Below, piece after piece: positions 3,414 to 43,438 of a stretch of DNA of 52,115 nucleotides. The DNA is taken from NCBI GenBank assembly GCA_964477875.1, contig CAYZFR010000002.1, positions 1 to 52,115 on the forward strand, written 5' to 3'. Each line of letters opens with the position of its first letter. The stretch's first letter is position 1. The position numbers and the translations under genes are program-made. The stretch is from an uncultured Myxococcales bacterium. GTDB taxonomy: Bacteria > Myxococcota > Kuafuiibacteriia > Kuafuiibacteriales > Kuafuiibacteriaceae. A model generated the notes under the pieces. That model searched no databases, was not told the origin of the DNA, and saw only the letters and a program-made list of their open reading frames with translations.

Positions 3414-4793
3414 TCAGTGGTTCTGAAAAGAAAGTGACTCCGGAAGCCGAGGGTCCTTGACCGGAACGAGATCCGCCCGTGCCGACACGAAAGCGAACGT
3501 CCCGAAGAACAGCGACACCACGCCAAACAAGCAAAGGACGTCGACGATGCTGAAGTGAGGGCTGGCATCCAAGATGGGCATCACCACGTAGTACAGATCG
3601 ACGTAGTGGATACCGAGCAGCCACACCGCACCCATGACCAGCGTGGTGGGGTTGCGCTTGATGCCTCGCGGCAAGAGGAAGAAGAAGGGAACGAAAAAGT
3701 GGCCGACCATCAAGGCCACGCCCACCTTCTCCCAGCCATTGATGCTCCGGTGGTAGTACCAGAGCGTCTCTTCGGGAATGTTCGCGTACCAAATCAGGAA
3801 GTACTGACTGAAGGCGATGTAGGTCCAGAAAACCGTGAAGCCGAAGAGGAGTTTGCCGATGTCATGGTAGTGCTCGGGGTTGATGATGCCCCGCACGTAG
3901 CCCGACCTCTGAAGCCCGATCGTCAACACCGCCAGACATCCGAAGATGGCGACCACGCAACCCGCGAAGTAGTACACCCCGAACATGGTCGAGAACCAGT
4001 GAGGGTCCATGGACTTCATCCAGTCGATGGCCGCGAAGGTAGTGGTGAAAGCGAACAAGATGACGCCCAGCGCAGAGAAGTTTTGCATCCGGCGGGTCAA
4101 ATCGTGCTCTCCACTATGGTCCTGACGGGTCGACGTCCGCCAGAAGAAAAACGCTAGAGCGCTCCATACCACCAGATAGAACACGGCTCGGAGCGTGAAG
4201 AAGCTTTCGTTCAGGTAGGGAGCCTTGTGGTCGAGGAGCGCGTCCTGACCCTCGAAATACCACCAATGGTAGTGGGTGCTGGACAGCCCAAAATAAACCG
4301 GGATGAACAGCAGCGCGAAGAGAGGGAGCGTCGCCATCACGTTCTCGGCGATGCGACGCACGACGACGCTCCAGCCGGCTCGAGCCAAGAACTGGATGAG
4401 GACGAAAAACAGGCCTCCGAGCGCCAGGCTGAGCCCGTACATGAAAGCCGTCAGATAAGAAAACGAGAAGCGCGTCAGCTCCGCATGGTGGCCTCCGTGG
4501 CCTTCGCCGCTCGGCTCGGCTCGATGGCCGCCCTCTTCTCCGTGTTCAGCTCCACCGTGCGCTGCAGCCCCGTGGTCGCCGTCAGCCTCGGCGTGCCCGT
4601 CGTCGGCCATCGCGACCGATTCGAAGCCGATCGAGGCATGCTCTTCGGCGCCGCCTTGTCCCAAGGCGAAGCCGAGAACCAGACACAGGATCCCCACACC
4701 CCAGAAGATGTATGGGTACTTGCGCCAGGGCGAATCGCTTTCGAAGCGCGTCTTGACGTCGGCGGGAATGGCCCGCAGTCGCTGATGACCCAT
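3414..4793 (-). CDS. actF: Alternative complex III subunit ActF (NrfD/PsrC-like quinol-binding membrane subunit 2)
   Basis: 459 aa polytopic protein, paralogous in style to ActC and sitting in the actABCDEF position. Carries a His/Gly/Glu-rich insert after TM1. Confidence 0.8.
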   Translation of the reverse strand: MGHQRLRAIPADVKTRFESDSPWRKYPYIFWGVGILCLVLGFALGQGGAEEHASIGFESVAMADDGHAEADGDHGAAAHGGAEHGEEGGHRAEPSGEGHGGHHAELTRFSFSYLTAFMYGLSLALGGLFFVLIQFLARAGWSVVVRRIAENVMATLPLFALLFIPVYFGLSSTHYHWWYFEGQDALLDHKAPYLNESFFTLRAVFYLVVWSALAFFFWRTSTRQDHSGEHDLTRRMQNFSALGVILFAFTTTFAAIDWMKSMDPHWFSTMFGVYYFAGCVVAIFGCLAVLTIGLQRSGYVRGIINPEHYHDIGKLLFGFTVFWTYIAFSQYFLIWYANIPEETLWYYHRSINGWEKVGVALMVGHFFVPFFFLLPRGIKRNPTTLVMGAVWLLGIHYVDLYYVVMPILDASPHFSIVDVLCLFGVVSLFFGTFAFVSARADLVPVKDPRLPESLSFQNH

Positions 4794-4796
4794 GAC

Positions 4797-5426
4797 TCAG
4801 TTCCAGCCTTTCTCTTTCGCGACGTCGTCGGGCACGGCGCTTCCGTCGGCGTAGGCCGCCCGCTGCAGCACGCGCACGTACGCCGCGATGGCCCAGCGGT
4901 CCCGCACTGGGATCTGGGCCCGATACGGCGGCATGTTGTTGTTCACACCATTCGTAATGACGTCGTAGAAGTGCCCGATGGGCATGGTCAGCAGGCGCTC
5001 GTTGTACAGCGCCGGCGGCTGAATGTTGCCACCTGAGTTCATGGACACCAAGCCCTTACCGGAGCCCGTCTTGGCGTGGCACGGCTGGCAGTAGATGTTG
5101 AAGCGCTCCTGTCCCCGGGCCAGGAACTCCTCGTTCAACTGCAACGGCTCCCCGTTCTCATCGACCTCCGGCAGGTCCTCGACCAGCTCCCCTTCGACCT
5201 TAGCGCGGTGAAGGTGGTCGTCGACCGTCAGCCCGCCGATTTTGACGGTACCTTCGACTGGCTTTCGATTCCCCATGGCCCCTGTGTATGGATTTTCTTC
5301 CTGCGGCTCGATCCGCTTCTGGAAGTCCATGTTCTGCTGGAGGTGGATCGGGGGTTCGGAAAACGTGCCGCCCTGGCACGCGGTGGCGAAAAGAGCCGCC
5401 ACCGTAATGAAACCTAGACTCTTCAT
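4797..5426 (-). CDS. actE: Alternative complex III subunit ActE (monohaem cytochrome c, probable lipoprotein)
   Basis: 209 aa. Signal peptide ends in ..FATAC. Single CQPCH motif. Position between actD and actF. Confidence 0.8.
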   Translation of the reverse strand: MKSLGFITVAALFATACQGGTFSEPPIHLQQNMDFQKRIEPQEENPYTGAMGNRKPVEGTVKIGGLTVDDHLHRAKVEGELVEDLPEVDENGEPLQLNEEFLARGQERFNIYCQPCHAKTGSGKGLVSMNSGGNIQPPALYNERLLTMPIGHFYDVITNGVNNNMPPYRAQIPVRDRWAIAAYVRVLQRAAYADGSAVPDDVAKEKGWN

Positions 5427-5428
5427 TT

Positions 5429-5958
5429 TCAGTCTTCCACCAGCTCGACGTGGCTAGCCCCCAACGACCTGAGAAACTCTGGAGTCTTCTCCGGGTCGAA
5501 CTGCGGGTCGTTGGCCTCGATCGAGATGAAGAACTTGTCGTCCGAGGCCGCCTTGAAGCGTTCGGACTCCAAGACGGGGTGATGCCAGCGTGGCAAGCGG
5601 TTCAAGAACAACATGCCCAAGACCGCCGACCCGGCCGAGAAAAGCACCATCACCTCGAAGGTGATCGGGATGAAGGCCTGCCAGGAAAAGAACGGCTTGG
5701 CTGCGATGATGATCGGGTAGTCGACGGCCGAGGTCCACCACTGGAGAAGCATTGCGCCTGACGCACCCGTGATGCCGCAGACGAACACGAAAAAAGGAAG
5801 ACGGGAGCGGGTCATGCCCATCGCGTCCTCCAGCCCATGGACCGGGAAAGGCGTGTGCGAATCCCACCTGGAGTACTTTGCGTCCCTGACCTTCTCACAG
5901 GCGTGGAAGATGGCGGGCGTGGTGTCGAACTGCGCCAGAACGCCAAAAGTCTTCTTAC

Positions 5959-5962
<4 letters not shown>
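5429..5962 (-). CDS. actD: Alternative complex III subunit ActD (DUF3341-like)
   Basis: 177 aa. Soluble N-terminal part, two central helices and the ..[10 protein letters not shown].. tail are typical of ActD. 4-nt overlap with actC. Confidence 0.75.
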
Positions 5963-7361
<1,399 letters not shown>

Positions 7362-7365
<4 letters not shown>

Positions 7366-10307
7366 CCGTTGGCCAACTCGGGGTTGGGATTGGTCAGCTT
7401 GGCGAGATACGTCGTCCGTGGGCGAATGTTGAGCTCGGCCAAAACGGCGTAGTTTCGGGGGTCCTTCTTCTTTTTGGCCACCTTCGTGTCCGGGTTGGCC
7501 ATGTCACCGAAGACGATGGCCCCCGTCGGGCAGGCCTGCTGGCAGGCAGTGACGATGGCGCCGTCCTTGATGTCGATGTCTCCTCCGCCAAACACCTTCT
7601 GGTGGATGCGGGCCTTCTGGATGCGCTGCGTGCAGTACGTGCACTTCTCCATCACGCCTCGGTAGCGCACGGTGACGTCCGGATTGCGCTGCATGGTGAT
7701 GCCCATCCCGTAGTCCTCGTCGTTGCGCACCGTGTAATGGAAGAAGTTGAAGCGCCGCACCTTGTAAGGGCAGTTGTTGGCGCAGTACCGAGTGCCGATG
7801 CAGCGGTTGTAGGCCATGTCGTTCAGGCCCTCGGGGCTGTGGGCCGAGGCACCGACCGGACACACGTTCTCGCAGGGCGCCGTCTCACACTGGCCGCAAG
7901 GCATGGGCTGGTACTTGACCTCGACCTCGCTCTCCGACTGCTCGAAGTATCGATCCACCCGGATCCAGTGCATTTCGCGTCCCTTGAGCACGTCGCTCTT
8001 GCCGACCCAAGGGATGTTGTTTTCTGCCTGGCAGGCGATGGTGCACGCGTTGCAGCCGGTGCACTGGTTGAGGTCGATGGTCATGGCCCACTGGTGCTTC
8101 CAGTCCTTGGCCCAAGGAAGGACGGGCTCTTCCCAGAGGAGCGACTCGATGTGCTCCTCCTTCATCACCTCGAACTTCTGAACGAAGTTTTCGTCTTCAG
8201 TGAAGTCGGTCTGGGTCGTACTCCGAACCAAGGGGCGGTCATGGAGTCCAGCTTCGATCTGGGCGCAGGCCAGCCGATAGCTTCCGCTGGCCCGGCTCAC
8301 CGAAGCTCCGCCGACGAAAGCGGCGCCGTCCACCGGACGGAGCCCGCTCACGTCGAAGCCGCTTCCAGCAAACTTGCCGTCGTCCGAGCGGCCGTAGCCG
8401 ATCGGGAGGACGACCACGTCATCCGCCGTGCCGGGTTGGATCCAGACCGGGAGCTCGAGGCTCTGGCCATCGACCGAAACCGACACCATCTGCTCGTTCT
8501 TTACGCCGAGCTTCTTGGCCGTCTTCGGTCCGAGGATGGCTGCGTTGTCCCAGGTCAGCTTGGTAATCGGATCCGGAAGCTCCTGCAGCCAGGGGCTGTT
8601 GGCGAAGCGGCCGTCCATCACCTTCAAGTCGCGGATGAAGACCAGCTCGGTGCCCTTCCCGGCCGCCTTCGGATAGGCAGCGACGAGACCGCTCGCGGTC
8701 AGCTCGAAGCCTTTCCGCTTCACCGGGTGCGAGTCGACGATCCCGTCGTGCAGCCAAACGGCCCAGGTCTTTTCGAAGTCGCCGTCGACGTGGGCCTTGT
8801 AAGTGGCCTTGACCTGCTCATAGCCGCTGGCGCCCTGTCCGAGAATCGCGGTCAGGATCTCGATGGGAGAAGCGGACTCGTGCAGCGGCGCGATGAGCGG
8901 CTGCTGTACGGACACGGTCCCATCTCGGGCCTGGAGGTCTCCCCAAGCCTCCAGATAGTGGCTCCTGGGCACGTGGAGCTTGGCGAGGCGCCCCGTCTCG
9001 TTCCGGAAAAGTCCCAGATGCAGGACCTGAGCCTTGCCCATCGCGTCGCCGAAGCCGGGCAGTTCGTGGGCTGGGTTGCCGCCCAGTACGACGACGTACT
9101 CGTGCTCGCCGCCCTTCATGGCCTCCACCAGATCGGCGGCCGATGACAGCTCGAGCCCGCTACGCTCGATCCACACCGCGATGCCGCCCTGTCGGGCAGG
9201 CATGGCCGCCGGCTGACCCTCGGCCTCGCCTTCCGACTCGGGGCGCGCAGGCGCAGCGCCGTAGGCCCCGAGCGCGCCGTTGATCAGATGCCCCAGGGCG
9301 TGGACCGCCGGCGGCTGCCGCTCGCCGACCACGACCAGCCCTCTGCCCTTGGCGGCCGCAAGATCCGCGGCAAGGGCCTTCACGAAGGCATCTCCGGCGT
9401 AGGCTTCGGCACCGGCCAGCTTGGGCAGATCGAAGCCTGCGGCGGCCAATCGAGCCGCCACGGCGGCCAAGACGCCGGGGACCTCGGAGGCCTTCACGGC
9501 CTTGCGATGGTCGGCGTTGGAGCCGGTCAAAGAGACGTGGGCTTCCGTCACGTAGAGCCGGTTCTTCTCTTTGGCGTCGGGATCCCGACCCTCGGCGAAA
9601 ATCCTGGAGAAGGCGACGGTGTCGCCTTCGGTCGCCATCGGATCGGCGTCGAAGACGGCCATGACCGCCGGTGCCGAGGCTATCGCCATGCTGGCGCCAG
9701 TGATGCCGGCCATGGCGGCACCGGCCCGGGCGTTCGCCTCTCCGAGGCCGTCATGTGCGTACAGCTTGGCGCCCGGCATCTCCGTCGCCAGCTGGCCGAG
9801 GAGGCGCTCCATGGTGGGCGAGGGCGTGTCGTCGATCAGCACCGCGAGGCCTCTCCCGCCCGCGTCCCGAGCCGTCTTGCCCATCGCCCGAATCGCGTCC
9901 ATGGCCGCCTTGGGCTCGACAGAGGCCCCGTCCAGGAAAGCGGTCCGGCTGCGATCCGGGTCGTAGAGCTCCAGCACCGAGGCCTGAGCCCAGGGCGGGG
10001 TCCCGCCTCGGCTCAGCGGATGGTTCGGGTTGCCGTCGACCTTCGTCGGCCGTCCGTCGTTAGAGCGCACGTTCAGCCCCAAAACGGAGCCGCCCAAGGC
10101 CACGGCGGTCGCGTAGTATTCAGGCCTGCCGGGCACTCGATCCTCGGGTCGCCGCCCGAAGGGCAGGATCTTCTCGTAGGGCTTGCGAATGCAGGCCGCG
10201 GTGTTGAGCGAAGCCATCGTAGCGCCCATCGCCGACAGAAAGGTTCGGCGGCTGGGGCTCTTGGGCTTGGCCATCATGCTCTCGTTTTTCGTGGTCATCG
10301 GTGGCAC
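7362..10307 (-). CDS. actB: Alternative complex III subunit ActB (molybdopterin-oxidoreductase-like domain fused to 4-cluster FeS domain)
   Basis: 981 aa. Tat signal [12 protein letters not shown]-terminal Cys clusters [44 protein letters not shown] and CTYCTQR..ACQQACP. Confidence 0.9.
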
Positions 10308-10951
10308 CCTGAGCAGTTCTGAGGAGGCTGGAGTTGGTTGCGGATTCGGTGAGGGTCAGAGGCCCAGTCGTATTTGGCGGCCTCTGGCGAGTCCTCCCAG
10401 CCCATTGTCGTGATCTCCGAATAGGGCCGCAGGTTCGGCTCCGGGTTACGGTGACAGCGGAGGCACCATCCCATGGAGAGCGGTGAGTGGAGGGCCACCT
10501 TCTCCATCTGGTCGATCCGCCCGTGACAGGTTTCGCAGCCCAGGCCGGCGGTCACGTGCACGTTGTGCGCGAAGTACGAGTAGTCGGGAAGCTGATGCAC
10601 CTTGATCCACGGGATCGGCTCTCCCGTCTCGTAGGACTCCCGGACCAGAGCCAGCTTCTCACTGTTCTTCTTCACGTAGGCGTGACAGTTCATGCACGTC
10701 TCCGCGGGCGGAATGGCTGCGTAGGCGGCCCGATCCACGGTGTTGTGGCAGTACCGGCAGTCGATGCCGAGTTTCCCAGCGTGGAGCTTGTGGCTGTAGG
10801 CCACCGGCTGCGTCGGCATGTAGCCGACGTCCGTGAAGTACGGGGAGAACCAATACAGCATGCCGAAAACGACCCCGACCCCGATGATCGGGACCGAGAC
10901 GGCGACGATGGTTGGGATTTTATTCGTCCACCTAGGGAAGGTATGACTCAC
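10295..10951 (-). CDS. actA: Alternative complex III subunit ActA (pentahaem cytochrome c, N-terminal TM anchor)
   Basis: Five CxxCH motifs (CRYCH, CMNCH, CETCH, CLRCH, CSGCH). I prefer the GTG start at 10951 (VSHTFPRWTNKIP + TM helix, GAAGGG upstream). Alternative starts are ATG 11023 and TTG 11035 (the track ORF). Confidence 0.85.
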   Translation of the reverse strand: MSHTFPRWTNKIPTIVAVSVPIIGVGVVFGMLYWFSPYFTDVGYMPTQPVAYSHKLHAGKLGIDCRYCHNTVDRAAYAAIPPAETCMNCHAYVKKNSEKLALVRESYETGEPIPWIKVHQLPDYSYFAHNVHVTAGLGCETCHGRIDQMEKVALHSPLSMGWCLRCHRNPEPNLRPYSEITTMGWEDSPEAAKYDWASDPHRIRNQLQPPQNCSGCHR

Positions 10952-11202
10952 GTTGTGACCCTTCTCGCTTGAATGGAGCCAGGGGGGCTCCGCCCAAAGC
11001 GTCGCGAAGCTAGCACCGGGCATCGAACCCTGCAAGCCGATGAGGACCTAGGAAATTTCGCACGGAATGCCGCGATCGCGCCCTGATGGGCACGATTCGA
11101 ACGCCTTGTCTCTGAACGGTCCCCGAGGCCGGAACTGGCCTCGAAGAGCCCGTATCCGCCCATGGGCGCACAACCTTCGACCACGGCGTCTGGTCCGGAC
11201 GC

Positions 11203-20008: not shown

Positions 20009-21136
20009 TCAGGGACGCTCAGCACGCACGAGTTGCGTGAGCATCGGTCGTCTGGTCCGGACCGAGCGGACCTGTTGGAATCCCGCGCCCTTAAGGGCGC
20101 GGATTATTTCTCGGCGGGTGCGCGGACGCCCCTGCCCCATGGCCAGCAGGTAGCAGCCAAAATACGCCGCGCCCACGCGTGGGTGACCGGGTGCGTCTTT
20201 CATCGGCTCTGCCACCACCAATCGACTTCGCGGCGCCATTTGGGCGTAGGCGTGGGCGAGGAGTCGATCCAGAGCCGGATCGTCGTGGTCGTGAAGGACG
20301 CGCACGAGAGAAACGACTTCGGCCGATGGCCACCGGTCTCGGAACATGTCTCCTCCCGTCGCCTCGAAGTCCGGATGCGCGCTCAGGCGAGCGCGCGCCA
20401 TGGCAGCAACGGCCGGCAAGTCGAGAAGCCGCAGGTCGAGCTCCGGCACCCGCCGGCCGAGCGCCTGCAGAAAGGCGCCGTCCCCACCCCCGACGTCGAG
20501 CCAGCTTCGAGCTCGAAGAGGCCCGAGCGCGTCGAGCACGTCCTCGGCGATCAATGCCTGAGTCTCGGCCATCAAGTTCGAGTATGGAGCCACCGCTTCC
20601 ATGGACAGTGCGTCCGGGTTGGCGGAGCACGCATAGCCCCAGTAGCGACGAAGCTCGGTGTCGGGGGAGGGATCGCGTAGCAGCGCCACCGGATCCCGGA
20701 GGTCTCGGTACAGCAACTCGTGGTGCTGCAGCATGGAGGCAACGCTGGGGTTGCCGAGCAAGGGCGAACCAAGAACGCCAAGACCCCAGCGATCTTTGCC
20801 GCGTCGCTCCAGCAGCCGGAGCGCAACGCAGGCGTCGAGCAAGACCCGCATCCGCGCTGGGGGCAAGTCTACTTGCTCTGCGAGTTCTTTTGTCTCCAGC
20901 GGTCCTTCAGCGAGGCGAGCGAAGAGCTCGAGCCTGCTCGCCGCCACCAAGATCTGCGAGTAGACGAAGCCGGCGCAGAGGTCGAAGAGCGCCGTCGACC
21001 GTCGTCGAGCGACGAATCGCATGAGCCAAGAGCCGGCTGCCCAGCGCTGAAATCGGGGGTTGGAAAAGAAGCGATCGCGAAGATGCGCGAGGCGATCGTA
21101 GAGGGTGCCGCCGCGAAAGCGCGCCGGAACCGTCAA
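20009..21136 (-). CDS. crtF: Carotenoid O-methyltransferase (demethylspheroidene/hydroxyneurosporene type)
   Basis: C-terminal class-I SAM methyltransferase (LDVGGGDGAF) with an N-terminal dimerisation/HTH-like part. There is no ATG after the crtE stop. TTG at 21136 gives a TTGA overlap with the crtE stop and about 375 aa. The Arg-rich 134-aa extension in the track ORF overlaps crtE and is rejected. Confidence 0.8.
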   Translation of the reverse strand: MTVPARFRGGTLYDRLAHLRDRFFSNPRFQRWAAGSWLMRFVARRRSTALFDLCAGFVYSQILVAASRLELFARLAEGPLETKELAEQVDLPPARMRVLLDACVALRLLERRGKDRWGLGVLGSPLLGNPSVASMLQHHELLYRDLRDPVALLRDPSPDTELRRYWGYACSANPDALSMEAVAPYSNLMAETQALIAEDVLDALGPLRARSWLDVGGGDGAFLQALGRRVPELDLRLLDLPAVAAMARARLSAHPDFEATGGDMFRDRWPSAEVVSLVRVLHDHDDPALDRLLAHAYAQMAPRSRLVVAEPMKDAPGHPRVGAAYFGCYLLAMGQGRPRTRREIIRALKGAGFQQVRSVRTRRPMLTQLVRAERP

Positions 21137-21993
21137 GCCGCGCTCGGAGCCACCGTCGCCAGCTCGAGACGCTTTGCCTGCCGGCGGACCAGACTCTGAA
21201 GCTCCACTCGCCCTGCACAGAGCGGAATCGCGTCCATCGCTTCCGAAAGAAGCTCTCTGAGTCGATTCGCCGCGCCGTCGACGCCGAGGCTGCCTACGGC
21301 ACTGGGCCGATCCAAGATGCTGTCCCGCCTGGAGGTCTTGCCGTGCTGCAGGTCGGGCGCGAGGTCTCGAAGGTCGTCTGCTACCTGGTAGGCCTCGCCA
21401 ATCTTGTCGCCGAGCGGACGCCAGGCGCTCGCCGGCTCGCCGGCCGAGATGGCTCCACACTCGGTCGCGGCGCGAAACAGCGCGCCCGTTTTTGCACGGT
21501 GATAAGTTCGTAAGGGCGGGCTCGGCTCGCTCTCCCAAGCCTGCCCCGCCACCAGACCGGCGGGAGCTCCGGCCGCATCGTGAAGAACGGAGAGGACTCC
21601 CATGGCGCCGGGCCGTGAGCCGGACGCGATGACGACGCCAAAGGCCCCGACGATCAGAGCGTCGCCGGCCAAGACGGCGAGGGGTTCACCGAATGCCCGA
21701 TGAACCGAAGCCCGATCTCGGCGAAGGTCCGCGTCGTCGAAACAGGGGAGATCGTCGTGCACCAAGGAAGCGCAGTGGAGCATTTCGATTCCCGCCGCGG
21801 CCGCTCGGGCCAACTCCCCATCGAAGCGCCCGCACGCCGATGACACGGCCAAGCAGAGCTGCGGTCTTACCCGAGCCCCACCCGGGAAGACCGCGTGCCG
21901 AACGGCTGCTCCCAACAAGGGCGGCGAGCCCGCCGAACCGAAGGTCCGCAGCGCCGCCTCGAGCGCTGATTCGATGGTCGTCTGGGCGTCCAC
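21133..21993 (-). CDS. crtE: Geranylgeranyl diphosphate synthase
   Basis: 286 aa with a GTG start. Polyprenyl synthase motifs LVHDDLPCFDDADLRR and YQVADDLRD. Confidence 0.8.
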   Translation of the reverse strand: MDAQTTIESALEAALRTFGSAGSPPLLGAAVRHAVFPGGARVRPQLCLAVSSACGRFDGELARAAAAGIEMLHCASLVHDDLPCFDDADLRRDRASVHRAFGEPLAVLAGDALIVGAFGVVIASGSRPGAMGVLSVLHDAAGAPAGLVAGQAWESEPSPPLRTYHRAKTGALFRAATECGAISAGEPASAWRPLGDKIGEAYQVADDLRDLAPDLQHGKTSRRDSILDRPSAVGSLGVDGAANRLRELLSEAMDAIPLCAGRVELQSLVRRQAKRLELATVAPSAA

Positions 21994-22012: not shown

Positions 22013-22056
22013 TGTCAGACAAACTCAACAGCCTGGAGTGTAGATTTTATCAGACA
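22013..22056. promoter_or_regulatory. Tandem PpsR/CrtJ-type operators (2 x TGT-N12-ACA, 8-bp spacer) upstream of crtE
   Basis: TGTcagacaaactcaACA (22013-22030) and TGTagattttatcagACA (22039-22056) are both perfect, separated by 8 bp. They lie in the 56-nt bchO-crtE spacer, and the second overlaps the bchO stop. Confidence 0.65.
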
Positions 22057-22868
22057 GTCTCAGCCCAACGCCGAGCCTCGCGGAGCCAGGCCACGGCTCG
22101 GGCGGGATTTTCCTCGTGGGCCAGGTGACCGGCGCCGCGCCAACGCTCCAATCGGGCTTTGGGTAAGCGCTCAGCAACGAAGGCCGACTCGTGGGGCGGG
22201 ACGGTTTTGTCGTTTCCTGCGGCCACCAGGAAGGTTGGCGTCGTGATCTCGGGGAGCACGGTCACAAGCGGTCTCAGGTCCCAGTGGGCCATCATGTTCA
22301 GGGCGCCGGCGACATGTCTGGGCTGGGTCAGAAGCCGGCGATAGGCTTCTATCCCGTCGTCGTCGAGGATGGACCCGGTCCGTCGGACCAGGCGACGGAC
22401 GCCCTTCTCGGTCACCAAGCAGCGAGCAACGAACGCTGGAACGCCCATCCTCGAGAGGCAGCGCGCGACCGAGCTCCAAAACAGCGGCCCCCAGCGCCCC
22501 CTGAACGGCAGAAAAGCTCCATTGAGGCCCACCACGACGTCCGGCGCGAGAACCCCAGCAGCGACCATCTGCAGCGAGATGGCGGCGCCCGCCGAGTGAC
22601 CGACCACGACCCTGGGCTCGAATTCGAGCGCCGCCAGCAGCGCGCCCAGCCCGGCCGCCACCGCCGGCAGACTCGGCGCCGGGCTCGGGCCGCTCCGGCC
22701 GTGACCCGGAAGATCGACGGCGATGACCTCATGAGCCTGGGCGAGCTCTGGGAGCATCCCGGACCAGGAATGGGCCGAAGCCCCCGTTCCGTGCACCAAG
22801 AGCAGGGCCGGCCCTTTACCCCGGCGCTCGACGTACCAGTCGACGCCCCCGGCTTCGACCAGGCTCAT
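22050..22868 (-). CDS. bchO: Mg-chelatase-associated alpha/beta hydrolase
   Basis: 272 aa. Contains LLLVHGTGASAHSW and a GHSAG nucleophile elbow. Position after bchD with a 4-nt overlap. Confidence 0.8.
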   Translation of the reverse strand: MSLVEAGGVDWYVERRGKGPALLLVHGTGASAHSWSGMLPELAQAHEVIAVDLPGHGRSGPSPAPSLPAVAAGLGALLAALEFEPRVVVGHSAGAAISLQMVAAGVLAPDVVVGLNGAFLPFRGRWGPLFWSSVARCLSRMGVPAFVARCLVTEKGVRRLVRRTGSILDDDGIEAYRRLLTQPRHVAGALNMMAHWDLRPLVTVLPEITTPTFLVAAGNDKTVPPHESAFVAERLPKARLERWRGAGHLAHEENPARAVAWLREARRWAETV

Positions 22869-25629: not shown

Positions 25630-26568
25630 TCAACCGAAGCGGGCTGACTTGCGCAACGCCTCATGGCCACCGTCGATGAAAGCTTCGAGCTCCGCCGCGA
25701 ACCGGGGCTGGTCGTAGTGGACCAGCGCCCCGGCGTCATAGGCCTGCACCTGCCAATTATCCTGGCCCTCAGCCCACTGCACTTCCGAATAGTCCGAGAA
25801 GTCGCCTTTGGTGCCATGGGCGAGAAAGACTGGACAGGACAGACGTTCGTAAACGGCGCGAATGTCCTTTGAGAAGAGCTTTCCCGACAGGAAGGCGTAC
25901 GGCGCGTGCTGGGCGCCCGCCTGCCGCGCCGACAACCAATCGTACTCGACCATCTCCTCGGGCACGTCCTTGGAGCCAAAGGTTCGGCGGAGAAAGTAGC
26001 GAATGGAGGCCTTCGACGTAAGCAGGTCGAAGATGCCGCGGCTCCAGAGACCGACCGAGAAGAACGCCTCGAAGCCCGGCAGCTCTCGCGTCGAGCCGGG
26101 CTCAATGAGCTTCTCGGCGCCCTTGGAGAAGCCGGTCGGCGTAATGAGGCAAAGGCTCTCCACATCGCGCGCTCGGTCGGATGCCGCACGAGCCGCGAAC
26201 TCGGCGGAGAGGGACAGGGCGACTACGTGGGTGGGGCGTCCAATCTTCGAAAGGGCGGTGTGGATCGCCTCGGTGAACAAAGCTACGTCATAGCGCCGCT
26301 TCGGCTTCGCCGAGTGTCCGAAGCCGGGAAGATCGACGGCCCAGATCTCATGACGAGGCACCAGAGCCTCGAAGAGCGGCTTCATCTCGATGCTGGAGGC
26401 GGCCGCGTTCACGCTGTGGACGAGCAGGACGGCAGGGCCGCTCCCGGCTCGGTAGCAGGCCAGCGCGGGGTCGACATCGTCCCACCATTCGATGGGCGCC
26501 TCGACGGCTGGGGGAAGAGGCGGAGCCATGGGGCACCCTGCCTCGTTTCCGAAGCAGGGGCCAGGCAC
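25630..26568 (-). CDS. Second alpha/beta-fold hydrolase, operonic with bchIDO
   Basis: 312 aa. Contains LLVHSVNAAASS and an ALSLSA nucleophile elbow, with downstream Asp/His candidates (HGTKGDF, LVHYDQP). Ends 9 nt before bchI. Confidence 0.65.
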   Translation of the reverse strand: MPGPCFGNEAGCPMAPPLPPAVEAPIEWWDDVDPALACYRAGSGPAVLLVHSVNAAASSIEMKPLFEALVPRHEIWAVDLPGFGHSAKPKRRYDVALFTEAIHTALSKIGRPTHVVALSLSAEFAARAASDRARDVESLCLITPTGFSKGAEKLIEPGSTRELPGFEAFFSVGLWSRGIFDLLTSKASIRYFLRRTFGSKDVPEEMVEYDWLSARQAGAQHAPYAFLSGKLFSKDIRAVYERLSCPVFLAHGTKGDFSDYSEVQWAEGQDNWQVQAYDAGALVHYDQPRFAAELEAFIDGGHEALRKSARFG

Positions 26569-26583
26569 TCGACCGAGACGGAC

Positions 26584-27054
26584 TCAGCCCTGCATGGGCG
26601 CGTAGCTCAAGCAGTAGCCGTTCGGGTTGACGGGTCCGCTGAACAGCTTGCATCCACCGCAAGCCGACCCGCCCTTGGGCTTGATGTACTGTGCGCAATT
26701 CTTACAGTATTTGCCCTCGTTCGGCGACTTGGCCACGTACTGCAGCGTCTTGCGCATCGACTTCGACTGGTCGTCGACCTTCGACTGGTCACAAGCGATC
26801 TCGCCGCTCTTGCTGTCCTTCTTCTCGGTGTCCGCGGCCGCGGTCTCCGCAGGCTGTGAGCCCGGCTTCTTCTCGGGCATCTTCTCTTTGGACTTTGCCT
26901 CCGCCTTCTCGGTGGCTTCTTTTTTGGCGGCCGGACCGCCGCCGCCGCCCTCGGTGCACGCTAGGAGACTAGGGGCCGCGACGAGGCCGGCGCCCAAAAT
27001 TTGGAGCGTTTGACGTCGTGAGATGATCGGGGTGATGGAGTTGTGGTCGTTCAT
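26584..27054 (-). CDS. High-potential iron-sulfur protein (HiPIP) with Tat signal, lipobox and long flexible linker
   Basis: 156 aa. Twin-arginine SRRQTL, lipobox SLLAC (Cys33), Lys/Glu/Ala/Pro-rich linker (about aa 34-95). HiPIP core is YCKNCAQY..GGCKLFSGPVNPNGYCLSYAP, matching the CxxC..GC.LF.G.VN.NGWC.SW pattern. Confidence 0.8.
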   Translation of the reverse strand: MNDHNSITPIISRRQTLQILGAGLVAAPSLLACTEGGGGGPAAKKEATEKAEAKSKEKMPEKKPGSQPAETAAADTEKKDSKSGEIACDQSKVDDQSKSMRKTLQYVAKSPNEGKYCKNCAQYIKPKGGSACGGCKLFSGPVNPNGYCLSYAPMQG

Positions 27055-27104: not shown

Positions 27105-27371
27105 TCAAGCCGTTTTTTTCGTTCGTACTCTGCTTCGCAGATCGAAGAGGTGTGCTGGAAGCGAAAGGGTCAAGAAGAGGGCCGAAAAGCGCCAGTCCCA
27201 CCCAGCGAGGGCGCTCCGCAGCGCCAACATCAGGAAGGCCCCTGCTGCGAGGTTCATGACGGCGGCTCGCCCCTGGGGCCCTGGCCACAGCCACAGAAGT
27301 CCCACCGCCTCCAAGAACACCAGGACCAGGATCGCGTCGATGGCTCGCCCGCTCGCGACCCAATCTGCCAT
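27105..27371 (-). CDS. Small hypothetical membrane protein (3 predicted TM helices)
   Basis: 88 aa. Starts 3 nt after the MFS::bchP stop. Hydrophobic segments ILVLVFLEAVGLLWLW, VMNLAAGAFLMLAL and FSALFLTLSL. No family recognised. Confidence 0.45.
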   Translation of the reverse strand: MADWVASGRAIDAILVLVFLEAVGLLWLWPGPQGRAAVMNLAAGAFLMLALRSALAGWDWRFSALFLTLSLPAHLFDLRSRVRTKKTA

Positions 27372-27374
27372 GCG

Positions 27375-29885
27375 TCAGGCGCGAGCCAGGCCTAGCAAAT
27401 GGGCGACGTCCTTGAAGAAGATCCGCGCGTGAGCGGCCGGTCGCGCTCGGACCAGCTCCTTGTTCATGTAGGCCTCCCAGGTCAGCTTCTGAACGTCGGG
27501 ATCATCGCAAATGCGCACGAAGCGCTCTCGACGCGCGTCGCTGCAGTACCAGAACCACTGCATCATCCCGAGGATCCAGAAAACCTGCCCGTGGGCACGC
27601 ATGAAGCGCTGTCGAGCGCGGCCGAGCGCGCGGGCGTCGCCGGTCTGGAGAAAAGCGACCCCGGCTTCGGCAGCCACCTCGCCCCCGACCATCGCGTAGT
27701 AGATGCCTTCGCCGGAGGACGGAGCAACCACACCTGCCGCGTCGCCGGCGAGAACGACGTTTCGACCGTCGTCCCAACGGCGCCGGGGCTGCATCGGGAT
27801 CGGCGCTCCCTCGCGTCGGACCGTCTTCGCGTCGGCTAGGCCAGACGCAGCCCGGAGCTCGGCGGCCGAGCCGCGGAGGCTGAAGCCTTTGTTGGCGCTG
27901 CCCGTCCCAACGCTGGCCGTCGCCCCGTGCGGAAAGACCCATCCGTAGAAGTCGGGGGATATCTGACCGCGGTAGATGACGTCACATCGGTCACCTTGAT
28001 AGTCGGCGTCCCCCCCGACGGGGGCCTCCACGATCTCGTGGTAGGCGAAGACGCAAGGCGGCTCCGTTCCCGGCAGGGCTTGCTTGGCAACCGCCGACAG
28101 CGCCCCGTCCGCGCCGACGAGAAGCCTAGCGCGGGCGGACTGCCGAGCACCCCCATCCTCTCTCCACTGCACCCGCACTTCACCGCCGGGTAGGGTCTCC
28201 ATTCGCTCGTACCGGCCAACGACGCGCTCGGCGCCGTTCTCCGCGGCGCGGACACGGAGAAACTCGTCGAAGACGCCCCGGTCGACCATACCCACGAAGC
28301 CCCCTTCGATGGGCATGTTCACTCGCTTGTCGGATGGAGAAATGATCCGAGCCGAAGAGATGCGTGCGCACAGCAAGTGCCCCGGGATCTCGAAGTCGCG
28401 GATCGCTCGAGGCGGAATCGCCCCCCCGCAAGGCTTGATGCGTCCGCCTCTATCCAAGAGCATTACGCGATGGCCGGCCGTAGCGAGGCGCTGCGCAGCA
28501 GTCGCGCCGGCTGGCCCCCCGCCGACGACGATGGCGTCCCAGCGCTCCTCGGGATGAGAGGAGGCGACGATGGTCTCGTTCTCCTCATGGTGGGCGGTCG
28601 GCTTCGCCGCCGCCGGAAGCCGGGTCATCCGCGCCGCCCAAACGGCGGCGACGACGAACAGGCCGGCCTCAGCCACGAAGACCACGCCGTAGGAAAACTC
28701 GGCCGAGCCTTGGATGGTACGGGTTACGTCAAAGCCGACCGTTCCCAGGAAGGCACCGACCGCGACCGCGATCGACTGCGCGCCCCCCCAAAGACCCATC
28801 CGAATGCCCTCGCGGCCCGAGGCGCCCTCCCCCGCCAGCGCCATCATCCAACCGATGGCCCCGACCGCGAAGACGCCGTTGAAGAGACCGAGCATGAAGA
28901 CGTGGGCCCGCAGGGGCCAGTCCGCCGCCATCTGGGCGCCGATGGGCAGCGTAGCTAGGGCGAGCCCAGAGCTGATGCAACCGAGGATGGTCCACATCTC
29001 CAGCTTGCCGAAGCGCTTTCCGAGGAGGGCAACGAGGAGCATCCCGCTCAGAGCGCCCCCGTTCTGCATGCTGGTCAGCCCAGTAGACTCGCCAGGGCTG
29101 AAGCCGAAGATCGCTCCCGCGAAGGGCTCCAAGATGAGGTCCTGAGTGCTGTAGGCCAGCATCGAGAGGAGGATGAAGACGGTGAAGGCTCGCGCGCGAG
29201 GCTCGTCCCAGATGGTCCGGAAGGCCTCCCCGAAGCTGCCGCGAGACTCGGCAGGCGCGGCGCCGTCGCTGGCGGTGCTTGCGCTGCTCTCGACGCCCCA
29301 CATCGCGACCAAGGTCACCAAAAAAGCGCTCAGCGAAACGACTGCCGTCACTCCAACGAGCCGGCTCATCGAGAAGGGGTCGAGGTTCGCGCTCGCGAAC
29401 AGCGTCGTGAGAATGAAGCCTGCGATCATCATCATCCAGACCAGCGACGCAGCGGGCGCCCGTCGCTCGGGCACCACCTCTCTCGCGAGCATCGCGAGGA
29501 GGGTCGTGCCCGCGGCGCCGACACCGAGACCAATGAGCGCGAAGGCCAGCGTCGCGACAGCGATCCCGAGCCACCAGCGCTCGGCCATGAGGGCTGTCCC
29601 CGCCGCCGCCATCACTCCGCCGACCGCCAACAACGCCACCCCTCCGATTATCCACGGTGTCCGTCGTTTGCCTCCGTCGGACGCGTGTCCCCAGTGTGGA
29701 CGTGACAACTGCACGGCGTGGTGCAGGCCGACCAGCAAGCCAGCCAGCATCGCCGGGGCGGCGAGCTCTACGACCATCACCCGATTCAGGGTGGAGGTCA
29801 TCAAGACCACGACGGAGCCGAGGGCGGCCTGCACCAGCCCCAGCCGAAAGATTCCGAACCAACTCAAACCATTCATTTTAAGCAC
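27375..29885 (-). CDS. bchP: Fusion protein: PucC/LhaA-family (BCD/MFS-like) membrane protein + geranylgeranyl-bacteriochlorophyll reductase BchP
   Basis: 836 aa uninterrupted. Residues 1 to about 420 are 12-TM PucC-like (..FRLGLVQAALGSVVVLMTSTLNRVMVVEL..). The linker is about aa 421-448. Residues 449-836 are BchP (WDAIVVGGGPAGATAAQRLATAGHRVMLLDRGGRIKPCGGAIPPRAI..). Confidence 0.8.
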   Translation of the reverse strand: MLKMNGLSWFGIFRLGLVQAALGSVVVLMTSTLNRVMVVELAAPAMLAGLLVGLHHAVQLSRPHWGHASDGGKRRTPWIIGGVALLAVGGVMAAAGTALMAERWWLGIAVATLAFALIGLGVGAAGTTLLAMLAREVVPERRAPAASLVWMMMIAGFILTTLFASANLDPFSMSRLVGVTAVVSLSAFLVTLVAMWGVESSASTASDGAAPAESRGSFGEAFRTIWDEPRARAFTVFILLSMLAYSTQDLILEPFAGAIFGFSPGESTGLTSMQNGGALSGMLLVALLGKRFGKLEMWTILGCISSGLALATLPIGAQMAADWPLRAHVFMLGLFNGVFAVGAIGWMMALAGEGASGREGIRMGLWGGAQSIAVAVGAFLGTVGFDVTRTIQGSAEFSYGVVFVAEAGLFVVAAVWAARMTRLPAAAKPTAHHEENETIVASSHPEERWDAIVVGGGPAGATAAQRLATAGHRVMLLDRGGRIKPCGGAIPPRAIRDFEIPGHLLCARISSARIISPSDKRVNMPIEGGFVGMVDRGVFDEFLRVRAAENGAERVVGRYERMETLPGGEVRVQWREDGGARQSARARLLVGADGALSAVAKQALPGTEPPCVFAYHEIVEAPVGGDADYQGDRCDVIYRGQISPDFYGWVFPHGATASVGTGSANKGFSLRGSAAELRAASGLADAKTVRREGAPIPMQPRRRWDDGRNVVLAGDAAGVVAPSSGEGIYYAMVGGEVAAEAGVAFLQTGDARALGRARQRFMRAHGQVFWILGMMQWFWYCSDARRERFVRICDDPDVQKLTWEAYMNKELVRARPAAHARIFFKDVAHLLGLARA

Positions 29886-30957
29886 CCACCAGAGTCCGCA
29901 CCGCGTGGGCGCCGACCATCATTCCAGAAACAAAGAGCGTAGTTCCAGTCGCGTTGTACCAAGCTGCACGCTCCTTCGGCTTGGCAACCAGTCGTCCCAT
30001 GAGCGCGAACTGGGTGAGGAGGAGCCCAGCCACCGCCGCCGCGTGGATCGGACGGCCCCAAAGCAAGAGCAGGCCGACCACGACCGCCTGAGGAGCCGCC
30101 ATCACGACGCAAGCCAACCGAACGGCTCCCTTCGTTCCGAGTTGGACGGGGATCGTCCGAACGTTCATCGCTCGGTCTCCCTCCAACGCTTTGAAGTCGT
30201 TGAGGATCATGATGCCGTGGGCGCCCAAGCTGTACAGGCCGGCAAGCGCCAGGATCGGGCCCGGCGGCAGCCGCCCGAGCAGAACGCCGGCGCCGGTGAA
30301 CCACGGAAGCCCTTCGTAGCAGAGGCCGACGGCCGCGTTTCCGAACCATCCGTTTCCTTTCAAACGAAAGGGGGGAGCGCTGTACGCCCACGCCAAGGCC
30401 AATCCAACGATGGTGGCGGCAAGAATCCACACCCCCAAGACGCCCGCCAGCACGAGCGCGGCCCCCGTGCCGGCGAGGGCCAAGCCGAACCCCCAGCGTC
30501 CCGGGACCCGGCCGGATGGGATGGGCCGGCCCGGCTCATTGATCTCGTCGACGTGACGGTCGTACCAGTCGTTGACGACCTGACTGGTCCCGCACACGAG
30601 GGGGCCGGCTAGAACGATGGCACCGATCACGAGGGCGATGTTGTCGAGCACTGGCCGCCCCGACGACACCACTCCGCAAGCCAGCGCCCACATGGGTGCG
30701 AACCACGTGATCGGCTTGAACAGCTGAACGACCGCGAGGGGCTGCGGCCAAGAGCGGGGTGGGCGAGGGACGGCTTCGCCAGAGGCGTCCTGATGAGCGG
30801 ACTTGCTCGGCTGGGTAGGCTGGCTTTTCGTGGAAGCTTGCGGCGAAGAGGGAGCCGCTTGGTCGCCAGCAGCCGAGAGGCGGAGCCGTCCGGAGGGTTC
30901 CGCGGAAGGACCGCCAGCCAGACGGGTAAAGACGTTTTTCAGCACACCCCTAGTCAT
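29878..30957 (-). CDS. bchG: Bacteriochlorophyll synthase (UbiA-family prenyltransferase)
   Basis: ..LFKPITWFAPMWALACGVVSSG.. and NDWYDRHVDEINEPGRPIPSGRV. ATG at 30957 forms an ATGA overlap with the ppsR stop, leaving a low-complexity N-terminal leader of about 60 aa. The track ORF over-extends to 31089. Confidence 0.85.
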   Translation of the reverse strand: MTRGVLKNVFTRLAGGPSAEPSGRLRLSAAGDQAAPSSPQASTKSQPTQPSKSAHQDASGEAVPRPPRSWPQPLAVVQLFKPITWFAPMWALACGVVSSGRPVLDNIALVIGAIVLAGPLVCGTSQVVNDWYDRHVDEINEPGRPIPSGRVPGRWGFGLALAGTGAALVLAGVLGVWILAATIVGLALAWAYSAPPFRLKGNGWFGNAAVGLCYEGLPWFTGAGVLLGRLPPGPILALAGLYSLGAHGIMILNDFKALEGDRAMNVRTIPVQLGTKGAVRLACVVMAAPQAVVVGLLLLWGRPIHAAAVAGLLLTQFALMGRLVAKPKERAAWYNATGTTLFVSGMMVGAHAVRTLVGA

Positions 30958-41310: not shown

Positions 41311-42011
41311 TGGACAGCCTGAGCTACCAGCAGAGTCGAAGCCGGCTGGAGGCCTACTTCGACCGAACCGCGGCCGACGCCTGGGCCCAGCTCACCTCGG
41401 ATCGACCGGTGAGCTGGATCCGCCGTACGGTCCGGGCCGGCCGCAAGGAGATGGCAGAGGGGATCATGGCGATGCTGCCCGAAGACCTCTCTGGCCAGCG
41501 CCTGCTCGATGCCGGGTGCGGAACCGGCATCCTATCCGTTGCCGCCGCCCAGCGCGGCGCTGACGTGGTGGCCATCGACCTGTCCCCTACCCTGGTGGAG
41601 CTCGCGCGGGAGCGCGTCCCGGCCCAGCTCGGTAGCGGCAGCATCGACTTTCGGGTCGGCGACATGATCGATCCCGAGCTCGGAGACTTCGACACGGTGG
41701 TAGCGATGGACTCGCTGATCCACTACTGCGCCCCGGACATCACGGCGATGGTGGAGCGCCTGGCGGCCCGGGCCCGGCGCCAGGTCGTCTTCACCTACGC
41801 GCCTCGGACGCCGCTTCTGGCCGTGATGCACTGGGTAGGCGGCTTTTTTCCCAGGTCGGACCGGGCGCCTTTCATCCAGCCCATCTCGCAGCGGAAGCTG
41901 AGCGGCGCCCTCCGCGCCTCCCCCCTCCTCGAGGGTTGGCAGCTCGGGCGCAGCATCCACGTTGGCCGGGGCTTCTACACATCTCGCGCCCAGGAACTCG
42001 TTCGCGCATGA
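41310..42011 (+). CDS. bchM: Mg-protoporphyrin IX O-methyltransferase
   Basis: 233 aa. SAM motif LLDAGCGTGILS. N-terminal ..LEAYFDRTAADAWAQLTSD.. . Confidence 0.9.
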
Positions 42012-43438
42012 AGGCCCTTCGCACGCAGTGGATCAAGACTCTGCGGCGAGTCGGTCCCACGTTCCTCCCCTTCGCCGACGCTGCCTCTCCCGAGCTTCCC
42101 CTGGGGCGACTGCTGCGCCTGTCGCTGTTTCAGGTCTCGGTCGGCATGGCAGTGGTGCTCCTGAACGGGACGCTCAACCGAGTGATGATCATCGAGATGG
42201 GGATCCCGGCCTGGCTGGTAGCGACCATGGTGTCGCTGCCCCTGCTGTTCGCGCCCTTCCGGGCCCTGGTCGGCTTCAAGTCCGACCACCATCGATCGGC
42301 CATCGGCTGGCGTCGCGTGCCCTACATTTGGATGGGCGCCACCATTCAGTTCGGCGGCCTGGCCATCATGCCCTTCGCCCTTCACGTCTTGTCTGGCGAC
42401 GCGGTGGCAGCGCCGCCCTTCGCGGGGGAGATCGGCGCCGCCCTCGCCTTCCTCTGCGTCGGGATCGGTCTTCACACCACCCAGACGGCGGGTCTCGCCC
42501 TCGCCACCGACCTCGCGACCGAAGAGACCAGGCCCCGAGTCGTCGCCCTCCTCTACGTCATGCTGCTGATCGGCATGGTGGGGAGCGCGCTCACGTTCGG
42601 CGTTCTCCTGGCGGACTTCGGCCGGGTCCGCCTCATCCAGGTCATCCAAGGCGCTGGCATCCTGACCCTCGGTCTGAACCTGGTGGCTCTGTGGAAGCAG
42701 GAGGCTCGGCGTCCCAACCTCGACCGGACCAAGGTTCAGCCGAGATTTCACCAGTCTTGGCAGCGCTTCTTGGCCGGCGGCCAAGCGAGCCGACTCCTGG
42801 TCGTGATAGGATTGGGTACGGCCGCCTTCAGCATGCAGGACATCTTGTTGGAGCCCTACGGAGGCGAAGTTCTGGACCTCTCGGTCGCCGCCACCACCGC
42901 CCTCACCGCGCTGCTCGCCGGCGGCAGCCTGGCCGGCTTCGCGTGGGCGGCCCGCTCTCTGTCGCAAGGCAAGAGCGCGTACATGCTGGCCGCGTGGGGC
43001 TCGTTGATCGGGATCGCGGCCTTCAGCGCCATCACTTTCGCCGCCCCGCTTCACTCGGTCATGCTGTTCCGCGTTGGAACCGTCTTCATCGGAATGGGTG
43101 GCGGCCTGTTCGCGGTCGGCACCCTCACCGCGGCGATGGGCCTGGCCGAAGACGACGGCGCCGGCCTCGCCCTCGGCGCATGGGGCGCCGTCCAGGCCAC
43201 GGCCGCGGGAGTGGGCATCGCGTTCGGCGGCCTCGTCCGCGACCTCGTCACGAGCTACGCCGAAGCGGGCGCCCTCGGTCCGGCGCTGACCGGCCCAGTA
43301 GCGGGCTACACCTTCGTTTACCACATCGAGATTGGCTTGCTGTTCGTCGCACTCGCGGCGCTCGGACCCATGGTCCGGCAGCAGCCGAGCGGGGCAGGAG
43401 CCCGCAGAAAGTTTGGTCTGGCCGAGATGCCAGGCTGA
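42008..43438 (+). CDS. lhaA: LH1 assembly factor LhaA (PucC/BCD family)
   Basis: About 476 aa from ATG 42008 (ATGA overlap with bchM). Contains ..LLRLSLFQVSVGMAVVLLNGTLNRVMIIEMG.. with 12 TM helices. Position between bchM and puhA. Confidence 0.8.
   Translation: MKALRTQWIKTLRRVGPTFLPFADAASPELPLGRLLRLSLFQVSVGMAVVLLNGTLNRVMIIEMGIPAWLVATMVSLPLLFAPFRALVGFKSDHHRSAIGWRRVPYIWMGATIQFGGLAIMPFALHVLSGDAVAAPPFAGEIGAALAFLCVGIGLHTTQTAGLALATDLATEETRPRVVALLYVMLLIGMVGSALTFGVLLADFGRVRLIQVIQGAGILTLGLNLVALWKQEARRPNLDRTKVQPRFHQSWQRFLAGGQASRLLVVIGLGTAAFSMQDILLEPYGGEVLDLSVAATTALTALLAGGSLAGFAWAARSLSQGKSAYMLAAWGSLIGIAAFSAITFAAPLHSVMLFRVGTVFIGMGGGLFAVGTLTAAMGLAEDDGAGLALGAWGAVQATAAGVGIAFGGLVRDLVTSYAEAGALGPALTGPVAGYTFVYHIEIGLLFVALAALGPMVRQQPSGAGARRKFGLAEMPG

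Follow-up and report, generated by a model that had tools for sequence, protein, structure and literature searches.

In Rhodobacter-type photosynthesis gene clusters (PGCs), the gene for bacteriochlorophyll (BChl) synthase, bchG, is followed by orf428 or orf427 (Bch2), which encodes a membrane protein of the PUCC family, and then by bchP, which encodes geranylgeranyl reductase; the three genes are separate. The same bchG-orf-bchP order occurs in Ca. Kuafubacteriaceae of the Myxococcota (PMC10576062). BchP is an NADPH- and flavin adenine dinucleotide (FAD)-dependent enzyme that reduces the geranylgeranyl tail on the BChl a supplied by BchG or on free geranylgeranyl diphosphate (PMC7242693). Here we analyze a stretch of 52,115 nucleotides (contig CAYZFR010000002.1 of assembly GCA_964477875.1, hereafter the window) from an uncultured Myxococcales bacterium, which has the same gene order and the same two proteins as the split bchG-orf428/orf427(Bch2)-bchP clusters. 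Unlike in those clusters, there is no stop/start junction between the last two genes and no separate BchP start, and the two proteins are encoded as one polypeptide. The best overall explanation, to which we assign a probability of about 0.8, is a heritable bch2::bchP fusion that arose through loss of the stop/start junction and would tether BchP at the cytoplasmic membrane surface.

Two further groups of described systems are close to this arrangement. LhaA and PucC, the assembly factors of Rhodobacter sphaeroides and Rhodobacter capsulatus, share with the fused domain the family PF03209, 12 transmembrane (TM) segments and cytoplasmic termini. The second group comprises enzymes of pigment synthesis that a dedicated membrane protein anchors. 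In plant thylakoids, geranylgeranyl reductase (CHLP) is reportedly anchored in a non-covalent manner by LIL3. In Synechocystis, chlorophyll synthase is found in a ChlG-HliD-Ycf39-YidC complex, as cited in PMC4949548. The logic of these complexes is like that proposed here, whereas the LIL3/ChlG anchors are unrelated one- or two-helix proteins resembling light-harvesting complex (LHC) proteins and act non-covalently; in the window, the partner is a 12-TM protein of the major facilitator superfamily (MFS) and the connection is covalent.

The fused gene and its domains

The fused gene, its parts and the two genes with which it is compared below are located in the window as follows.

27375..29885, minus strand: fused gene bch2(pucC-like)::bchP (open reading frame list, sequence, Pfam/NCBIfam matches, identical database protein P0001)
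28626..29885, minus strand: PUCC/BCD-family MFS domain, residues 1-420, predicted to have 12 TM segments with both termini inside (N-in/C-in) (PF03209, hydropathy, AlphaFold2 (AF2))
28542..28625, minus strand: linker, residues 421-448 (coil in AF2; divergent among relatives)
27375..28541, minus strand: BchP geranylgeranyl reductase domain, residues 449-836 (TIGR02023, conserved motifs, Foldseek)
29878..30957, minus strand: bchG, bacteriochlorophyll synthase (NF005742, 388 bits; TIGR01476, 308 bits; PF01040 UbiA)
41936..43438, plus strand: separate canonical lhaA (PUCC), flanked by bchM and the puh genes (PF03209, E 9e-141)

The original prediction, made from the sequence of the window, described one 836-residue open reading frame (ORF) with no internal stop, consisting of a 12-TM PUCC-family region up to about residue 420, a short linker at nucleotides 28542-28625 and a full BchP beginning at the GGGPAG motif, and each of these elements was borne out. 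The ORF runs uninterrupted on the minus strand, which the prediction had left unstated, from a GTG at 29885 to 27375 (stop TGA at 27377-27375) and encodes 836 residues. An alternative start, the ATG at 29876, gives an 833-residue product, and both the database copy P0001 (833 residues) and the orthologue in the metagenomic locus L081 begin at the equivalent ATG. The 8-nt overlap with bchG that had been described exists only with the GTG start at 29885; with the ATG at 29876, the bchG stop and the start form TAA-A-ATG with a 1-nt spacer. The two genes are tightly coupled with either start, and a TAA stop keeps bchG apart from the fusion in the window.

The N-terminal domain matched PF03209 over residues 32-421 with 296 bits (cutoff, 21), covering positions 1-397 of the 401 in the profile, and hydropathy revealed 12 hydrophobic TM segments between residues 10 and 418. 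Even-numbered loops contain 17 Lys and Arg residues in total vs 5 in odd-numbered loops, a bias that, by the positive-inside rule, indicates a predicted topology with both termini in the cytoplasm. This prediction agrees with the topologies of LhaA and PucC, for which the published PhoA-fusion account gives 12 TM segments and cytoplasmic termini (PMC4949548). The domain showed 52-62% identity to the proteobacterial ORFs that lie between bchG and bchP, with 146 loci and 10 plasmids compared, and only 29% identity to the LhaA encoded in the window itself, and one homologue carries the database name 'light harvesting pigment MFS transporter Bch2'. Because of this difference in identity, and because the window has a separate lhaA, we assign the fused domain to a third PUCC paralogue (orf428/orf427/Bch2/'BCD family MFS transporter') rather than to LhaA, which is in keeping with the earlier description of it as the equivalent of the orphan ORF between the two genes. 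Unlike LhaA and PucC, it sits in the bchG-bchP operon and not beside puh or puc genes. A role in light-harvesting assembly is described for LhaA and PucC; the fused domain is a different paralogue.

The C-terminal domain matched the NCBIfam model TIGR02023 (BchP-ChlP) almost end to end (residues 450-831; profile positions 2-387 of 388) with 476.5 bits against a cutoff of 343.3, and was 60-70% identical to split proteobacterial orthologues. The motifs GGGPAG (FAD binding; residues 455-460), KPCGGAIPP (484-492), PDFYGWVFPH (644-653) and GDAAGVVAP (714-722) are present, the second and third in the longer forms RIKPCGGAIPP and SPDFYGWVFPH, and the motif columns are invariant or nearly so in the protein alignment. 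An AF2 model of the fused chain, built from a 93-sequence alignment, had a mean predicted local distance difference test score (pLDDT) of 90.3 and placed membrane helices at residues 9-420, followed by the coil linker and, from residue 448 on, a flavoenzyme domain of Rossmann type. The best Foldseek hit of the BchP domain was 3oz2 (TM-score 0.79, normalized to the target), followed by 3atq (0.71) and 4opt, and a sequence search of the PDB also retrieved 3oz2 (E 3e-18). These archaeal geranylgeranyl reductases (Ta0516, 3oz2; Sulfolobus GGR, 3atq) have the same fold; they are about 20% identical to the BchP domain, stand alone without a membrane domain and act on archaeal lipids. Both domains are intact, and the predicted polypeptide comprises a complete 12-TM PUCC domain and a complete BchP.

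The two domains are joined by about 27 residues, which stem from the C-terminal tail of PucC and the N-terminus of BchP. This linker is predicted to be disordered (coil in the AF2 model, with pLDDT below 50 at residues 431-437), and both its length and its sequence vary across the wider protein alignment. Disordered segments are typically accessible to proteases, and one could suppose that the fusion exists at the gene level and is cleaved in the linker after translation to give separate Bch2 and BchP at a ratio of 1:1. The length, the predicted disorder and the absence of conserved sequence would be compatible with such processing; however, the linker has no conserved cleavage motif, and we regard this explanation as clearly improbable. 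Separate translation of BchP finds no trace in the window: no ATG, GTG or TTG occurs in frame from residue 420 to the GGGPAG motif, and no remnant of a Shine-Dalgarno sequence for a separate bchP survives there. Since the window has a single copy of bchP and no internal start, its conserved BchP can be produced only as part of the fusion.

Fused relatives and the junction

A single mutation would be enough to fuse two such genes, and some fusions in databases derive from error-prone long-read contigs (L083, L084 and L169); the genes might therefore be separate in the organism, with an error of sequencing or assembly having removed the stop or shifted the frame. A search of related genomes argues strongly against this. 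L081 (JGI metagenome 3300023202) and L082 (NCBI metagenome-assembled genome (MAG) GCA_039027555.1, labelled Myxococcota) contain the same single fused ORF, with proteins 88 and 79% identical to that of the window, respectively, and all three share the order aerR-ppsR-bchG-fusion-orf88-HiPIP-hydrolase-bchI-bchD. At 71-83% nucleotide identity, L081 and L082 have kept the frame open. In a three-way codon alignment, the PUCC domains are 82-89% and the BchP domains 80-94% identical, with many synonymous differences in the latter, while identity in the linker drops to 23-39%, with an in-frame indel of 6 nt in L082. When the window is compared with L081, synonymous and replacement codon differences numbered 144 and 53 in the PUCC domain, 154 and 24 in the BchP domain and 6 and 17 in the linker, which argues that the two domains are under purifying selection and that the linker needs only to stay in frame.

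A fourth fused relative, L168, is 62% identical, has the same upstream synteny and comes from a clean short-read assembly. The junction was confirmed at the DNA level in the window, L081, L082, L168 and the Sphingomonas locus L085. The genes around the fusion in the window are all intact, and thus the assembly is not an error-prone one. Two independent assemblies have retained the fusion across a highly diverged linker with an in-frame indel, and the start codon and Shine-Dalgarno sequence of a separate bchP are gone. The fusion is therefore genuine, and the indel artefact against which the original prediction had cautioned was effectively excluded without raw reads, three divergent assemblies keeping the frame and BchP having no start of its own; that the genes are separate in the organism is extremely improbable.

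In a database of 5.8 billion proteins, the nearest unfused PUCC protein was 62% identical, vs 82-87% for the fused relatives, and the fusion appears to be fixed within the lineage of the window. Domain-only searches, which seem to drop targets far longer than the query (P0001 and P0002 were absent), were used solely to find these nearest unfused relatives. A full-length search of the protein database retrieved about 45 clusters of 800-900 residues with both domains and 53-62% identity, with organism names that include Nevskia, Azospirillum and Tagaea; in a search of 50%-identity representatives, all fused proteins merged into one or two entries (P0003 and P0047). The Tagaea and Azospirillum clusters have many independent fused members on dozens of contigs (NCBI, JGI, ENA and Logan). 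Individual examples are the 848-residue proteins of the isolates Sphingomonas sp. BK481 (WP_311725472.1) and Sphingomonas sp. T1 (WP_328799508.1), an 852-residue protein of Tagaea sp. CACIAM 22H2 (MBC8790743.1) and 843-residue proteins from Azospirillum/Tagaea MAGs. The Sphingomonas, Tagaea and Azospirillum entries have the same PUCC-linker-BchP architecture as the window and are 53-57% identical over the full length.

A neighbor-joining tree was made from the concatenated PUCC and BchP regions of 40 fused proteins and 71 split pairs; sampling was uneven, the fused proteins coming from the whole protein database and the split pairs from 71 GTDB species. Fused proteins formed six or more clades with several members, as well as single branches, and split relatives lay among them; by Fitch parsimony, the root was split and a minimum of 16 changes, fusions or splits, was needed. 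By this tree, the Sphingomonas, Tagaea and Azospirillum fusions would be independent events in other phyla or classes. Tagaea/Azospirillum formed the largest fused clade, with a within-clade PUCC identity of 62-81% and a nearest unfused PUCC protein at 63% or less. Clade purity was tested for two clades, and the fusion looks fixed in this one too. Bch2 and BchP are thus separate in most genomes and one chain in some, which is the formal pattern of a Rosetta-stone fusion. The original prediction had read this pattern as a sign of physical partnership; the pattern itself holds and recurs in many lineages, and the specific partnership is not established by it.

Several other apparent fusions were rejected. 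A 759-residue BchG-PucC protein (P0088; L084, 975-3254) lies on contig ctg32424_2x alongside a truncated bchP of 320 residues and probably reflects an error. P0006, whose N-terminus carries a BchG-like extension, comes from a locus (L083) with fragmented genes, and a 960-residue BchI-BchD protein at 8497-11379 of L083, beside fragmented genes, is most likely due to a frameshift error. The fusion in L169 (P0005) is untrustworthy, as the contig is labelled '2.5x' and has a split bchN, and the triple or odd architectures P0199, P0186 and P0239 are artefacts or fragments of low-coverage long-read assemblies. No reliable BchG-PUCC fusion was present among the database proteins examined. Long-read metagenome contigs thus call for caution in fusion mining.

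Neighboring genes of the cluster

The window contains a complete PGC. On the minus strand are genes for an Alternative Complex III (ACIII)/Qrc-like complex, pufC, pufM, pufL, bchZ, bchY, bchX, bchC, a crtF-like gene and crtE, and further bchO, bchD, bchI, a second alpha/beta-hydrolase gene, the gene for a high-potential iron-sulfur protein (HiPIP), orf88, the fusion, bchG, ppsR and a B12-binding aerR-like gene. The plus strand carries bchFNBHLM, lhaA, puh genes, acsF and puhE. The following features accompany the fusion.

27105..27371, minus strand: orf88 (small hydrophobic product), 3 nt beyond the stop of the fusion (relatives found by tblastn)
26584-27054, minus strand: HiPIP, just downstream of the fusion and orf88 (PF01355 at residues 107-152)
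25630-26568 and 22050-22868, minus strand: two alpha/beta-hydrolase genes flanking bchI-bchD
21133-21993, minus strand: crtE, longest ORF
20009-21538, minus strand: crtF-like methyltransferase, longest ORF of 509 residues (family match only from residue 196)
3414-11035, minus strand: Alternative-Complex-III/Qrc-like gene set adjoining pufC

The likely start of bchG is the ATG at 30957, which forms an ATGA overlap with the ppsR stop and gives 359 residues; it was read from the ORF translation, guided by the 4-nt ppsR/bchG overlap in L081. The longest ORF reaches 31089 (403 residues), and 135 nt of it lie over the 3' end of ppsR. Even the 359-residue BchG would have a low-complexity N-terminal extension of about 57 residues, rich in Ser, Pro and Ala, that is absent from the 302-residue orthologues in L081 and L082.

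orf88 has no Pfam match and keeps its place downstream of bchP in related clusters. Its homologues, 38-83% identical in tblastn, occur near bchP in L081, L062, L168, L050, L040 and L169, and it may be an unrecognized conserved PGC component of this Myxococcota-like group. The HiPIP is conserved in L081, L062, L168 and L169 and is a likely electron donor to the reaction center; its translation shows a twin-arginine-type signal and a long spacer rich in Lys, Glu and Ala ahead of the 4Fe-4S domain. The ACIII/Qrc-like set encodes a QrcA-like multihaem cytochrome, a DsrP/NrfD-like membrane subunit, a cytochrome c and a 981-residue protein with molybdopterin-like and FeS domains (QrcB+QrcC-like), which points to ACIII rather than bc1 as the partner in cyclic electron transfer. 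In L168, ActD and a cytochrome adjoin the PGC.

One of the two hydrolases flanking bchI-bchD is a clear BchO (TIGR03056, 268 bits), and the other, of 312 residues, is encoded upstream of bchI; the arrangement in L081 is the same. The longest ORFs of the crtF-like gene and crtE overlap by about 400 nt, and translation of crtF probably begins well downstream.

Tethering of BchP and the role of Bch2

In the explanation that we favor, the stop/start junction between the translationally coupled bch2 and bchP would have been lost and one polypeptide formed. The 12-TM domain would end in the cytoplasm, and the flexible tether of about 27 residues would hold the FAD-dependent BchP at the membrane surface, where it would reduce the geranylgeranyl tail of BChl a freshly made by the membrane enzyme BchG. 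As the sole source of BchP in this Myxococcota-like lineage, the fusion would impose a 1:1 stoichiometry and membrane co-localization with Bch2. Given the substrates of BchP, the enzyme is correctly placed on the cytoplasmic side of the membrane. An anchoring of BchP at the membrane next to BchG had been proposed from the fusion; placement at the membrane, on its cytoplasmic side, is supported and the gene follows bchG, while proximity to BchG does not follow from the fusion. It rests on gene order and the LhaA pull-downs (PMC4949548), since the sole BchG-PucC fusion (P0088) is probably an error.

The repeated survival of fusions and their fixation in clades suggest that unfused Bch2 and BchP already share a membrane neighborhood. 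By analogy with the co-purification work of Mothersole et al. (PMC4949548), we infer that this neighborhood would comprise BchG, YidC, YajC and the LhaA/PucC paralogues. In that work, FLAG-LhaA captured BchP and co-migrated with BchG, with BchP and BchG among about 90 proteins in the pull-down. Tethering could then aid or mimic a pre-existing association of Bch2 with BchP (and BchG); it is equally possible that the fusion is merely tolerated, as the substrate of BchP lies in the membrane anyway. The fusion thus fits an assembly for terminal BChl synthesis and is no proof of a specific complex.

The route by which such fusions arise can be read directly in Sphingomonas. The split allele has an ATGA overlap between the genes, and the fused allele, 92% identical in nucleotide sequence, lacks 2 nt of a (GC)n tract about 12 nt upstream of that overlap, a deletion that moved pucC into the bchP frame and left the BchP ATG as an internal Met. 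In the window lineage, in contrast, every trace of a separate start has been lost. The tract, CGCGCGCGCGCGCGG, lies at about 4360-4400 in L085 (fused) and about 2975-3004 in L086/L087 (split) and differs by 2 nt. Slippage is common in (GC)n tracts, so that conversion between the fused and the split state might take place within a population. Split pairs in the same frame usually have 3 nt between them and other split pairs overlap as ATGA or GTGA, the bchP Shine-Dalgarno sequence lying within the 3' end of pucC.

Scans of GTDB and of metagenomes returned no close relatives of the window and serve as samples of the split state; the counts from them given here refer to the matches listed. Many pucC/bchP pairs lie in one frame with a single stop between them (L001-L049 and L065; L088-L137), often with only one codon between the stop and the bchP ATG; the separating stop in the same-frame GTDB set was TGA in 22 cases, TAA in 15 and TAG in 13. 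Same-frame pairs numbered 50 of 75 in GTDB and 52 of 71 in metagenomes, an excess that is most likely due to a bias in tblastn ranking.

A number of observations weigh against a functional interpretation of the fusion. No fused locus was found among the 75 adjacent pairs in GTDB species representatives, the 71 on metagenome contigs or the ten finished plasmid-borne clusters; the genes are thus separate, unlike in the window, in 146 of the 146 adjacent pairs sampled and on all ten plasmids (annotated 'BCD family MFS transporter | geranylgeranyl diphosphate reductase' in every case). The unfused PUCC family forms at least 7,900 clusters at 90% identity vs about 45 fused ones, and fused forms, by this count, appear to make up well under 1% of the family. 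Near-constant adjacency and translational coupling make fusion a one-step accident. Fused and split forms occur inside one 90%-identity Sphingomonas cluster, in which S. aerolata, UV9 and Leaf226, at least 90% identical to the fused proteins, have a separate BchP of 394 residues. With this polymorphism and an origin by a 2-nt slip, the fusion may be selectively neutral. The linker is without constraint, and the AF2 predicted TM-score (pTM) of 0.66 does not establish a fixed PUCC-BchP interface. Moreover, bchP lacks an adjacent pucC-like gene in 5 of 80 GTDB loci, including the Myxococcota Polyangiaceae and Nannocystaceae, and in 9 of 80 metagenome loci, as has also been described for other Myxococcota phototrophs (PMC10576062), and hence Bch2 is not universally required for BchP. 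Fusions of adjacent genes are, finally, weak evidence of binding.

The fusion could accordingly be real and yet a neutral accident of the operon, uninformative on any interaction between Bch2 and BchP, such that any inner-membrane protein with a cytoplasm-facing C-terminus would be tolerated. On this account Bch2 is simply the upstream gene, paired with bchP by a 3-nt gap or an ATGA overlap, and the rare, scattered fusions (at least 16 events), their one-step origin, the coexistence of both forms among Sphingomonas strains, the unconstrained linker and the lack of a robust BchG fusion all follow readily. It accounts less well for the two or more clades in which the fusion has stayed fixed despite considerable divergence and which have no close unfused relatives. 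The adjacency and coupling of bchG-bch2-bchP have also been kept across Proteobacteria, Gemmatimonadota and Myxococcota (PMC10576062), which points to a functional link regardless of the fusion, and the paralogue LhaA co-purifies with BchG and BchP (PMC4949548). We consider neutrality a serious possibility, if not a likely one, and retain the tethering fusion as the best explanation.

The components and the gene order have long been known, and fused proteins are already present in RefSeq/GenBank. A limited literature search found no description of the fusion, nor does PMC10576062 mention it; an account in other terms may have been missed. The fused proteins of about 840 residues are labelled only 'geranylgeranyl (diphosphate) reductase', and the membrane domain is hidden by that name. 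Natural pairs of fused and split strains are provided by Sphingomonas sp. BK481 or T1 on the one hand and S. aerolata or UV9 on the other.

Proteobacterial, Gemmatimonadota and some Myxococcota photosynthesis clusters have conserved a PUCC-family gene between bchG and bchP, to which, to our knowledge, no function has been assigned. The recurrence of the fusion, its fixation in clades and the predicted cytoplasmic-face topology lead to the hypothesis that Bch2 localizes or scaffolds the reduction of the BChl tail. A broader proposal, which is tentative and which we judge rather unlikely, is that Bch2/orf428 serves purple-type phototrophs in general as the dedicated receptor or scaffold of BchP in the membrane, as a functional analogue of plant LIL3. 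If it is true, BchG, Bch2 and BchP would form a 'tail-finishing' module that would receive geranylgeranyl-BChl a from the synthase, offer it to the reductase and hand on the phytylated BChl a. The recurrent fusions would then capture that complex in covalent form, and a conserved gene of the photosynthesis cluster would gain a function.

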